64,000 bases of DNA from a virus (lineage: Duplodnaviria > Caudoviricetes). Each line of letters opens with the position of its first letter. The first letter of the stretch is position 1. The stretch spans positions 384,001 to 448,000 of the IMG/VR virus record IMGVR_UViG_3300049988_000286; one strand, 5' to 3'. A model generated the notes under the pieces. It ran no database searches. It had not been told where the DNA came from and was given only the letters and a program-made list of their open reading frames with translations. Below, piece after piece: positions 9,055 to 60,080 of the stretch. Both the position numbers and the translations under genes were made by a program.

Positions 9055-9149
9055 TGGTACGCCCGGAGGGATTCGAACCCCCAACCGTTCCGCGATCTGC
9101 GGATCATGAGGTATAAGCTCACCGCTCTAACCAATTGAGCTACGGGCGC
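9055..9149 (-). tRNA. tRNA-Ile(UAU) with long variable arm
   Basis: Cloverleaf GCGCCCG/CGGGCGT, anticodon loop CT-TAT-AC, variable arm CCGC-AGATC-GCGG, encoded CCA. Confidence 0.85.
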
Positions 9150-58277: not shown

Positions 58278-59095
58278 TGCGTGACCTCATCAATCTGATC
58301 GAGGGGGCGGGCGTCACCTACCGGGTTTCACAAGGACCAGACACCTACCGCTTCATTTACGATAATCATCCCAGCGTCTTCCATGACAAGAGGATCAAGT
58401 ACTTTGATCCCAAGGAGAGCGTGAGGGAGATTCACGTGATCGCAGAAATGGGTGATCTCGTAATCGGCATGGCGGGAATGCAAGTCAATCCGCATGATAC
58501 GGAGCAACTCTGGATTAAGTTCATTTCGGTCGATCCCGCCTATCAAGGGCGCGGCATCGGCAAGACTCTCCTGCGCCACATCTACCTCTATGCTGATGAG
58601 CATGGCTTCAAGATGGCACCGGGGAGTTTCTCACCGGAGGGAGAGCGTTTACGCCATCTTCATGATGAATGGGATAAGGAATTCCCACGCGTCGCCTATG
58701 ACCGTGACAAGAACGGTAACTACATGAACTCCAAGGGTCAGATCGTCCGCATGAACGAGGGTCATTCGTGGAGCCAGTGGGTGCGGCCCGGCGACGAGAT
58801 GGTCACCATCGATGTCGAGAAGGTCAGGGCATCATGGGCGCTCGACCGAGACTTCTATTTCGATGATGGTGACCACCCCAACGCGATCCGGGGACGGGTG
58901 TCTCGTTTCAACCAATGGCTGGAGCGCGGCGAAGCAATCGGCTTGCCTGAACTGTGCCTCAATCCATCCGGGGAGATTACCTTCATCAACGGTCGCCATC
59001 GGTTCGTGGCGCTGATGCAACGCGGCGTCGAGAGTCTCCCCGTCGCGGTTCCGGTAGATCAGGCTGACGAGTTTCGTCTGCGGTTCGGAAAATAG
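58277..59095 (+). CDS. GNAT acetyltransferase fused to ParB/Srx-like domain
   Basis: ISVDPAYQGRGIGKTLL (motif A); FINGRHRF; MRDLINLIE start. Confidence 0.75.
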   Translation: MRDLINLIEGAGVTYRVSQGPDTYRFIYDNHPSVFHDKRIKYFDPKESVREIHVIAEMGDLVIGMAGMQVNPHDTEQLWIKFISVDPAYQGRGIGKTLLRHIYLYADEHGFKMAPGSFSPEGERLRHLHDEWDKEFPRVAYDRDKNGNYMNSKGQIVRMNEGHSWSQWVRPGDEMVTIDVEKVRASWALDRDFYFDDGDHPNAIRGRVSRFNQWLERGEAIGLPELCLNPSGEITFINGRHRFVALMQRGVESLPVAVPVDQADEFRLRFGK

Positions 59096-59098
59096 TTG

Positions 59099-59129
59099 TT
59101 GACACCCAAAAGCTCGTGTGAGATAAATA
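59099..59129 (+). promoter_or_regulatory. hybrid promoter of Tyr/His tRNA operon
   Basis: TTGACA(59099-59104) and GATAAATA(59122-59129). Confidence 0.65.
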
Positions 59130-59134
59130 CTCCT

Positions 59135-59179
59135 ATGAACACGCAGAGCCATCACACCTATTATCATTACCACGCGTAA
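59135..59179 (+). CDS. leader peptide MNTQSHHTYYHYHA
   Basis: 7 of 8 consecutive codons His/Tyr; upstream of Tyr and His tRNAs; ATG 5 nt after TAAATA. Confidence 0.8.
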   Translation: MNTQSHHTYYHYHA

Positions 59180-59241
59180 GCGGGGTCGTGGTAACGCGTC
59201 CTCGTTTCGGGGACGATGAAGGTGTGAAAGAGCCAGCGTGG
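59167..59241 (+). promoter_or_regulatory. attenuator-like alternative RNA structures
   Basis: TTACCACG(59167-74)/CGTGGTAA(59187-94); CGTCCTC/GGGGACG(59197-59215); competing CCACGC/GCGTGG(59236-41). Confidence 0.6.
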
Positions 59242-59300
59242 CACTCTCCCCATAGTTGAACCCGCGAAGACGCAGATGATTTGCGTATCATGTTGCTAGT

Positions 59301-59384
59301 GGGTCGGCTGGACACGAGTGAGTCCACCTGACTGTAAATCAGACGCTTTGGCTGTGAGGGTGCAAATTCCTTCCCGGCCCACCA
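59301..59384 (+). tRNA. tRNA-Tyr(GUA), atypical D/T loops
   Basis: GGGTCGG/CCGGCCC, A73, loop CT-GTA-AA, V arm, CCA. Confidence 0.8.
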
Positions 59385-59409
59385 AGCAACCAAAGAACAG
59401 TGATCAGGT

Positions 59410-59483
59410 GCGGCCGAGGCTGACTTGGATGAGGCGCGCGGTTGTGATCCGCGAGATAGTGAGTTCGAACCTCACCGGTCGCC
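59410..59483 (+). tRNA. tRNA-His(GUG), no encoded G-1 or CCA
   Basis: GCGGCCG/CGGTCGC, stem CGCGG/CCGCG, loop TT-GTG-AT, canonical T arm, C73. Confidence 0.75.
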
Positions 59484-59502
59484 CCTGAACACTGTTCACC
59501 TT

Positions 59503-59596
59503 GGGAGGTGCCCCCGCTCGCCGGTTGTAACCCGGTGGTCTCTAATAAGGGTGGGAAGCATTGAGGCGATGGGTGCAATTCCTACACCTCCCACCA
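59503..59596 (+). ncRNA. D-armless tRNA-like RNA with GUA anticodon
   Basis: 8-bp acceptor GGGAGGTG/CACCTCCC, A-CCA end, anticodon arm GCCGG-TTGTAAC-CCGGT, 4-bp T stem; no D arm, 33-nt extra region. Confidence 0.65.
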
Positions 59597-59599
59597 CGT

Positions 59600-59674
59600 G
59601 GCGTTGGTAGCTCAATGGTAGAGCGCTCGATTGTGGATCGAGATACGCGGGTTCGATCCCCGTCCTTCGCCCCA
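59600..59674 (+). tRNA. tRNA-His(GUG) with G-1:C73
   Basis: G-1, GCGTTGG/CCTTCGC, loop TT-GTG-GA, CCA. Confidence 0.9.
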
Positions 59675-59702
59675 GACCTTCTAACAAGTCCCTAAATATG
59701 TC

Positions 59703-60080
59703 ATGCGCAACTTCATCGATATCGTCAACGAAACTGTTATGTCGGATTCCGACACCTACTATTATGTTGTTGGGAAGGTGCGCGACCTCTATACGATGAG
59801 GGCAACAATCGACGGCTATTGCGAAGATGGCGTGATCTACCTCGATCTTATTTCGGTAGACGATGCCGGTAACGGTGTCGGCACAGAGATGATGAAGGAA
59901 ATATGCTTCAACGCGGATGATCACCACATCGCCATAGAGCTTGAAGCGGGATCACACGGTCGAGGCAATATCAGTCAGAGAAAGCTGGAAGATTGGTATG
60001 GCCGGTTTGGTTTCAAGAAAACTGGCGCGGTCTCAAGCGAAGACCATCCCTATATGCGCAGAGAACCCTCTGCTACTTAA
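59703..60080 (+). CDS. GNAT-family acetyltransferase, late, putative capsid-targeted
   Basis: ISVDDAGNGVGTEMM, LEDWYGRFGFK; TAAATA+4 nt+ATG; MRNFIDIVNE. Confidence 0.75.
   Translation: MRNFIDIVNETVMSDSDTYYYVVGKVRDLYTMRATIDGYCEDGVIYLDLISVDDAGNGVGTEMMKEICFNADDHHIAIELEAGSHGRGNISQRKLEDWYGRFGFKKTGAVSSEDHPYMRREPSAT

Follow-up and report, generated by a model that had tools for sequence, protein, structure and literature searches.

The Tyr/His tRNA cluster in the window analysed here (64,000 nt, bases 384001-448000 of a 499,572-bp IMG/VR virus record; 57% G+C) is headed by a 14-codon leader ORF in which seven of eight consecutive codons specify His or Tyr. It is likely that the element uses the ribosome to sense His/Tyr decoding capacity and so controls the phage's own genes for tRNA-Tyr and tRNA-His. 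The observation of a codon-matched His/Tyr leader is real and far beyond chance, and its reading as a codon-matched sensing module, proposed in an earlier sequence-only reading of this DNA, is supported. The DNA comes from a leaf metagenome, and among the listed runs that contain it none is recorded as RNA. Since the phage's tRNAs are similar to those found in Caulobacter, Brevundimonas, Sphingobium and Erythrobacter phages, its host is probably an alphaproteobacterium.

The leader ORF and its promoter

All features of the His/Tyr cassette lie on the plus strand. The predicted promoter consists of a -35 box, TTGACA, at 59099-59104, common to all eight tRNA/tmRNA cassettes in the genome, and, after 17 nt, a -10 box, GATAAATA (the TAAATA box of this phage), at 59122-59129. 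The genome has 49 ATAAATA sites, and at 31 an ATG or GTG follows after 3-8 nt; many of these start codons open long ORFs with the same geometry as the His/Tyr leader, so that transcripts starting at or adjoining the start codon seem to be usual in this phage. A TTGACA box is added to an ATAAATA-type start only in the tRNA cassettes. With its ATG only 5 nt past the -10 box, the His/Tyr leader mRNA should be leaderless or nearly so, judging from the predicted start site, and no Shine-Dalgarno sequence was found before that ATG.

The leader ORF, MNTQSHHTYYHYHA plus stop codon, occupies 59135-59179 (ATG at 59135, TAA at 59177-59179), a short frame whose ATG lies at the predicted +1 of the transcript. 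Codons 6-13 (59150-59173) read CAT CAC ACC TAT TAT CAT TAC CAC, that is His, His, Thr, Tyr, Tyr, His, Tyr, His, and include both His codons and both Tyr codons. The positions first assigned to TTGACA, GATAAATA, ATG 59135 and the TAA all proved correct when the sequence was read again, and the chance of seven His/Tyr codons in eight under uniform codon choice, earlier put at ~4e-8, was recalculated as about 3-4e-8. A six-frame scan of the 499,572-bp genome for at least six His/Tyr in eight codons returned exactly one locus, namely this leader, which lies on the same strand as, and less than 170 nt from, the only Tyr/His tRNAs of the genome. Antisense ORFs at the locus have no Pfam match. The Thr codon at leader position 8 is invariant in the orthologues, yet the cluster contains no tRNA-Thr.

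The Tyr/His tRNA cluster

The leader ORF lies 122 nt upstream of a tRNA-Tyr(GUA) at 59301-59384, behind which come a tRNA-His(GUG) at 59410-59485 (ARAGORN; Rfam 43.1 bits), a tRNA-like RNA at 59503-59596 that has GUA in its anticodon loop and in which the variable region is very long, and a second copy of tRNA-His(GUG) at 59601-59674 (ARAGORN; Rfam 61.3 bits). The first of these has an unusual T-loop, UGCAAAU, and its arms were read by eye; its Rfam call, over 59301-59381, is borderline (29.2 bits against a 29-bit cut-off), and the anticodon loop, CUGUAAA, makes it Tyr(GUA). The same type of tRNA heads clusters in Caulobacter, Brevundimonas and Sphingobium phages too. The third element has an acceptor stem and a T arm, and is labelled tRNA-like because no tool calls it as a tRNA, its best match being to the Rfam model for tRNA-Sec (16 bits, E 2.6). 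In contigs of runs X2 and X3 the match covers exactly 59502/3-59596, that element alone, and the flanks are different, so it appears to behave as a conserved module. ARAGORN, Rfam and the reading of the arms agree with the order first proposed -- Tyr, His, GUA tRNA-like RNA, His, and no other specificities -- and no other His or Tyr tRNAs were found in the whole genome. As in a trp/his-type attenuator, the leader codons are cognate to what is supplied downstream.

Conservation of the leader in related phages

Relatives were reached through homologues of the GNAT-like protein encoded upstream and then through contigs of related megaphages. This protein-homologue route to contigs succeeded; a search of viral contigs for the GNAT neighbour protein gave no relatives, and one for the exact promoter-plus-start string gave no match. 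The orthologous leaders are MTNTVHHTYTTYHA in L124-L127 (a 542-kb record and Logan contigs), before Tyr, Tyr, a HisRS-like gene, His and His; MTNKVHHTYYHYHA in L129, before His and Tyr; and MNTQSHHTYTHYTIA in L130, before Tyr-type tRNAs and His. They retain 5-7 His/Tyr codons, with Tyr and His as the sole tRNAs behind them, and keep those codons while other positions vary; at His7 the CAC of the window is CAT in the orthologues, a synonymous change. It had been asked at the outset whether relatives keep the tRNAs while losing the His/Tyr ORF, and three independent relatives keep both.

A closer relative, a 141,820-bp contig of run X5, shows 50 differences over 58916-59601, at least 29 of them in the neighbouring gene at 58948-59079 and six in the promoter spacer (59108-59117), with none in the two promoter boxes, TTGACA included. 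Across 59118-59300 it differs from the window by one change (59255), as against the 29 or more in the neighbouring gene, which indicates that the whole His/Tyr leader is under strong constraint. A contig of run X4 is more divergent.

A family of codon-matched cassettes

The tRNA genes of this phage are grouped into clusters by amino acid. The motif TTGACN-N15-19-NTAAATW has 10 sites in 500 kb; eight of these directly precede tRNA or tmRNA genes, and seven of the eight open a short ORF with codons matching the tRNAs behind it. Besides MNTQSHHTYYHYHA before the Tyr/His tRNAs, there is MNTNTTFVAGRGVVANRANRG, which stands ahead of tRNA-Met and then of tRNAs for Gly/Val/Arg/Asn/Ala. Three Lys tRNAs are preceded by a Lys leader with RKRKR in it, and seven Leu/Pro tRNAs by a 47-codon ORF in which 12 Leu/Pro codons stand in a row. 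MNTTTSSTTISWSITFG precedes Ile, Ile, Trp and Thr tRNAs and, after these, one for Thr and three for Ser; MNTTYTLMERERSIG precedes two Glu tRNAs; and an ORF that starts with GTG and ends QRQQR precedes two Gln tRNAs. In a permutation test on the seven leaders, the true leader-to-cluster pairing alone among 5040 reaches the observed match. The 12-codon Leu/Pro run is a single locus in a six-frame scan of the genome, placed before the Pro/Leu tRNA cluster, and its leader represents each of the seven downstream anticodons by one codon; TTA is omitted, and the tRNA for TTA lies outside that cluster, 1 kb away. The His/Tyr leader is, as the sequence-only reading held, one more instance of a single sensing module, whose amino-acid set differs and again matches, and the unique six-frame locus, the matched cassette family and the orthologous leaders make coincidence very unlikely.

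The design extends to other phages. A promoter-plus-start pattern search of viral and metagenome contigs yielded MNTNFTSIRLDEREEDTFQR, ahead of Asp, Glu, Glu; an FWRF-containing leader ahead of Trp and Phe; a leader reading MNTKRKF... ahead of Lys; one with Ile/Ser/Thr/Trp codons ahead of tRNAs for Ile, Ser, Trp and Thr; one with Val/Ile/Ala codons ahead of Val and Ile; and MNTNFTSGSSSFKGSSSFFHYYGRKS ahead of Tyr, Phe, Ser, Gly. A canonical terminator was present in all four of these that were read downstream (Asp/Glu, Trp/Phe, Lys and Tyr/Phe/Ser/Gly). Codon-matched leaders also stand ahead of tRNA clusters in cultured phages of Caulobacter, Brevundimonas and Sphingobium. The CcrColossus leader, with the codons YRNNVRQIRVRQ, is followed by an annotated terminator and then by tRNAs for Tyr, Val, Ile, Gln, Asn and Arg; variants of the leader occur in CcrSC, CcrPW and Brevundimonas phage Kabachok, the Kabachok ORF being annotated as a hypothetical protein; and in Sphingobium phage Lacusarx MFTQTTLLTQCHYWQLLSSSSL precedes Ser, Tyr, Leu, Leu, Thr, His, Gln, Ser, Cys and Trp. 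Terminators were found in three of the three cultured-phage cassettes studied closely.

The predicted RNA switch

Transcript nucleotides 1-84 (59135-59218) were folded with ViennaRNA, masking -15 to +14 around the first base of the A-site codon. Three mutually exclusive helices, set by the position of the ribosome, are predicted. Segment 1, inside the ORF (59161-59175), pairs in the minimum-energy structures with segment 2, which starts in the stop codon (59178-59194), when no ribosome sits on segment 1; segment 2 can instead pair with segment 3 (59178-85 with 59200-07, plus 59187-90 with 59195-98); and segments 3 and 4 form the hairpin CGUCCUCG-UUU-CGGGGACG at 59197-59215 (dG -10.9 kcal/mol), which is without a U-tract. 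This predicted geometry is that of the trp and his attenuators, as long established for those systems. The 8-bp hairpin noticed earlier at 59167-74/59187-94 (TTACCACG/CGTGGTAA) is present, as is GCGTGG at 59236-41, but the CCACGC/GCGTGG helix that had been put forward as its competitor is absent from every predicted state, and the 1:2, 2:3 and 3:4 set is better supported.

Masked folding is an equilibrium model with an assumed ribosome footprint, and within it the probability of the 3:4 hairpin is 0.97 with no ribosome (59161-75 pairing with 59180-94), 0.98 with a ribosome at the stop codon, about 0.6-0.7 with the A site at His6 or His7, and 0.0-0.2 when one of codons 8-11 (Thr, Tyr, Tyr, His) occupies the A site, where the hairpin is lost because 59178-85 then pairs with 59200-07. 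When the 17-nt spacer from stop codon to hairpin was shuffled, a switch appeared in 7 of 300 trials. GCGGGG directly follows the stop in all orthologues (one base later in L124/L127). The three-state switch is predicted also in L129 and L130, despite different loops and, in L130, a different part of the stem, and in a weaker version in L124 and L127; RNAalifold on four orthologues recovered the 2:3 helix, plus a pairing of segment 4 with the C-rich tract described below. A switch in the His/Tyr leader is on these predictions plausible and conserved. A long-range fold of the full 166-nt leader, in which the 5' end of the ORF pairs with the 3' end (z -2.65), was set aside, as a translating ribosome excludes it.

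Applied to the other cassettes, masked folding gave a switch on cognate codons in several of those from other phages, not all. Among terminator-bearing cassettes it did so for Pro/Leu, Trp/Phe (G004), L078, Kabachok and CcrSC, and for the Glu cassette, with its canonical terminator, the predicted switch extends to the first of the two Glu codons only. None was predicted for CcrColossus, the Lys cassette or Asp/Glu (G001), so masked folding alone is not a reliable test.

The output step

The 3:4 hairpin is not followed by the U-tract of an intrinsic terminator. Its tail, AUGAAGGUGU, has no U run, the longest T runs between hairpin and first tRNA are 2-4 in all four orthologues, and a terminator scan of 58900-59900 returned no site, so a plain intrinsic terminator in the His/Tyr copy was dropped. 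This copy and its three orthologues are without a canonical terminator. Hairpin-plus-U-tract terminators occupy the equivalent place in the Pro/Leu and Glu cassettes of the same phage and in G001, G004, L078, CcrSC, Kabachok and CcrColossus, which points to termination of transcription as the usual output of the cassette family. Two other candidate signals after the hairpin were also rejected: GGTGTGA, which follows the hairpins of both the His/Tyr and Lys leaders, has 70 sites in the genome against about 65 expected and for the most part does not follow hairpins, and a mini-ORF, ATG AAG GTG TGA, is not conserved, being ATA in L129.

The rest of the leader, from 59216 to the first tRNA at 59300, is strongly conserved, these 85 nt being held to the same degree as the tRNAs themselves. 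The conserved features past the hairpin are a purine-rich stretch, a C-rich tract and, just before the first tRNA, the motif GUUGCU (in the window, L129 and L124; UUUGCU in L130). At 59220-59253 a purine-rich arm, an apical GCCA/UGGC pairing and a C-rich arm, CUCUCCCC, can be made out, and the C-rich arm can pair with segment 4 (GGGGA with UCCCC). In four orthologues C locally outnumbers G over about 30-40 nt, 15-50 nt past the hairpin, and folding predicts this tract to be paired in both states; one possibility is that the C-rich tract is a Rho loading site. The attenuation model does not explain the strong conservation of the 85 nt.

The candidate outputs are termination that depends on Rho, termination at the hairpin by itself and control over how the precursor is processed; premature termination is ranked first because the sister cassettes carry plain terminators in the same place. 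The best guess is that the hairpin lowers tRNA output by premature termination without a canonical intrinsic terminator, for example by Rho acting on the C-rich tract. An output after transcription, in which the same sensor would decide through its folds how the precursor is cut or how long it lives (RNase E, RNase P, removal of the 5' leader), is rated as unlikely: the absence of a U-tract after the hairpin in every orthologue, the tRNA-like conservation of the 85 nt, and the GUUGCU or UUUGCU just before the first tRNA in four orthologues would all suit it, and against these stand the plain hairpin-plus-U-tract terminators that sister and relative cassettes carry in the equivalent place.

How the leader would act

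With premature termination as the preferred output, the element is envisaged to work as follows. From the strong promoter, transcription would start at or adjoining the ATG, and a ribosome would load on the leaderless mRNA and translate the 14 codons. With charged tRNA-His and tRNA-Tyr plentiful, it would reach the stop and cover segment 2, the 3:4 hairpin would form and tRNA output would be low; were no ribosome loaded, 1:2 and 3:4 would both form and output would likewise be kept low. With slow decoding of His or Tyr the ribosome would linger on codons 8-11, covering segment 1, so that 2:3 would pair, 3:4 would be blocked and transcription or maturation of the tRNAs would proceed. Slow decoding could arise from a host tRNA pool too small for the demand of the phage or from a defence system that cleaves host tRNAs, before enough phage tRNA accumulates, and the rising phage tRNA would close the loop. 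The codon match, its single occurrence in the genome, the cassette family, the orthologues and the conserved alternative pairings are observed; translation of the ORF, the site of the stall and this sign of the response are inferred.

A stalled ribosome cannot distinguish a missing tRNA from an uncharged one, and the mechanism is formally identical to that of the amino-acid attenuators known from trp and his, so that the leader might instead report starvation for free His or Tyr, as in hisL, the tRNAs being merely co-regulated. We consider this distinctly improbable. Feedback of that kind would be purposeless, because more tRNA does not cure a shortage of amino acid, and the match of the Pro/Leu leader to single anticodons would fit the sensing of tRNA species. 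That the ORF is a chance frame, or a His/Tyr-rich micropeptide with a function of its own, the promoter simply driving the tRNAs, is very improbable indeed, for all that it has just 14 codons and its translation is a prediction, given the single His/Tyr locus in the genome, the seven matched cassettes with their 1-in-5040 pairing, the orthologues that hold His/Tyr codons while other positions change, the recurrence of codon-matched leaders with quite different peptides in unrelated phages, and antisense ORFs without a Pfam match.

Implications for phage tRNA genes

The reason why phages carry tRNA genes is described in PMC10264068 as having been debated for more than 50 years. An infection in which host tRNAs are cut can be rescued by tRNAs of the phage, as by tRNA-Tyr against retron-Eco7 PtuAB (PMC11555353). 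On balance we favour the wider view that ribosome-mediated attenuation governs the tRNA genes of phages in several lineages through modular cassettes (promoter, codon-matched test ORF, RNA switch), each measuring decoding capacity for precisely those tRNA species whose genes lie behind it and turned on when host tRNAs are scarce or destroyed by anticodon-nuclease defences.

A full-text search of incomplete coverage found no published leader-peptide control of tRNA genes, which is absence of evidence only. Such control is also absent from a 2026 computational survey of phage tRNAs and from papers on phage tRNAs and defence, and the phiCbK genome paper, which reports no Tyr tRNA, makes no mention of attenuators or leaders. 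If the wider view is true, these would be the first tRNA genes under leader-peptide control and would give a direct read-out of why phages carry tRNAs, the His/Tyr copy adding a variant that works without an intrinsic terminator. A sensor of slow codons would show that the supply of tRNA is, for the phage, a need under regulation and would reveal which tRNAs each phage expects to run short, and leader-peptide attenuation, a textbook mechanism, would be extended to a new class of target. The cassettes would also be compact, reprogrammable parts, in which a swap of codons should alter what is sensed. Since the design is present in the cultured phages CcrColossus, CcrSC, CcrPW, Kabachok and Lacusarx, it can be tested at the bench.

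Comparison with known systems

One close likeness is to the leaders of the enterobacterial his operon (hisL) and to trpL, pheL, leuL and thrL, in which a short leader ORF likewise carries a run of cognate codons. With the hisL/trpL type the His/Tyr leader also shares the predicted exclusive helices 1:2, 2:3 and 3:4, and a stop codon that would place the terminating ribosome over segment 2. Unlike the hisL type, it would control tRNAs and not biosynthetic enzymes and would sense two amino acids, and it is borne by a phage; its mRNA, moreover, is predicted to be leaderless, and its 3:4 hairpin is without a U-tract. The multivalent leaders of ilvGMEDA and ilvBN resemble it in their mixed codons, shortage of any one of which relieves attenuation, but their codon set reflects a shared biosynthetic pathway, whereas that of the His/Tyr leader reflects the tRNA genes downstream. 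In pheM, the leader of pheST (the phenylalanyl-tRNA synthetase operon), a gene of the translation apparatus is similarly controlled by the speed of the ribosome on cognate codons; there the product is a synthetase protein, in the His/Tyr cassette the tRNA itself.

T-box riboswitches are alike in reading the state of one tRNA species and adjusting translation-supply genes through a choice of terminator or antiterminator. Unlike the His/Tyr leader, a T-box binds the tRNA itself and operates with neither ribosome nor ORF, and in an Rfam search neither the T-box nor any other family matched the leader, only tRNA models being above threshold and the matches within the leader being at chance level. 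In Salmonella mgtL/mgtA and mgtCBR and in E. coli tnaC, translation of the leader controls transcription through a C-rich Rho loading site, without an intrinsic terminator. Control of this mgtL/tnaC type may apply to the His/Tyr leader too, because its U-tract is absent and its C-rich tract conserved, with the difference that the signal sensed and the genes controlled are not the same.

Unusual tRNAs and putative tRNA modules

In the GUA-anticodon tRNA-like RNA of the His/Tyr cluster (window 59503-59596), the variable region spans about 32 nt and a normal D arm is missing. This RNA is matched exactly, end to end, by contigs from runs X2 and X3, with different flanks; in the X2 contig, 109 other bases take the place of the preceding Tyr and His tRNAs (window 59279-59501). 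It appears that tRNA units are exchanged as modules.

The tRNA-Tyr of the cluster (window 59301-59384), with its T-loop UGCAAAU, was missed by ARAGORN in the window. The same type is found in the cultured Caulobacter and Brevundimonas phage loci L002 (1501-1587), L003 (2501-2584) and L004 (3001-3085), where it carries no annotation in CcrColossus, CcrSC or Kabachok, and the phiCbK genome paper reports finding no Tyr tRNA in these phages (PMC3556154). Many tRNAs, at several genome-wide sites and at window 9055-9149, are unusually long -- 95 nt for Ile-TAT and 91 nt for Met, Arg and Cys -- and may carry introns or extra arms. Outside the window, two clear tRNAs with the amber suppressor-type anticodon CTA (G000:C1:102238-102314 and 106351-106425) and an odd third (73547-73625) have been identified; TAG may be read as a residue by the phage at some stage.

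Genes near the tRNAs in related phages

Histidyl-tRNA-synthetase domains (PF13393, PF00587) occur in a 172-residue protein that the 542-kb relative encodes between its Tyr and His tRNAs. Some variants have a PDDEXK_5 nuclease gene, possibly a mobile endonuclease, inserted next to the tRNAs; these entries lie at L124 8591-9109, L125-L127 8508-8882 and L129 5934-6317 among the related megaphage contigs. In L124 (6001-6999, protein P0008), the GNAT-like gene's homologue in the syntenic position has an ADP-ribosyltransferase toxin-type domain (PF03496) replacing the GNAT domain, and it adjoins the same DUF6655 gene. The GNAT-like gene itself, upstream of the His/Tyr leader, ends in TAG (window 59093-59095).

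Leader ORFs and tmRNA

The single-amino-acid Lys, Glu and Gln leaders of the sister cassettes (G000:C1:267650-267694, 453674-453627 and 68422-68369, respectively) and that of G004 L023, from a relative, alternate Arg codons with their sensor codons (RKRKR, ERER, QRQQR, KRK), despite the absence of an Arg tRNA downstream. After the terminator and before the first tRNA, the Caulobacter and Brevundimonas phages have a second mini-ORF (MNNGG, MTGGD), preceded by a good Shine-Dalgarno sequence (L002 1466-1483; L004 about 2971-2988). A phage-encoded tmRNA with the tag VNDNDIRMAIAA (G000:C1:15527-15913, outside the window) begins 29 nt downstream of a TTGACA/TATAAATA promoter, as in the tRNA cassettes, and has no leader ORF.

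A putative general promoter

ATAAATA with an ATG 4-5 nt later occurs at 31 sites genome-wide (G000:C1; counted from 49 ATAAATA sites as those with ATG or GTG 3-8 nt downstream), as at window 59703-60080. It looks like a general promoter of the phage, and would yield leaderless mRNAs. Many of the ORFs behind these sites share the start MRxxIxLxE and look like a single paralogous family, which would include the gene directly 3' of the His/Tyr cluster. The box in this putative promoter is of the TATAAATA type, resembling the late promoters of T4.
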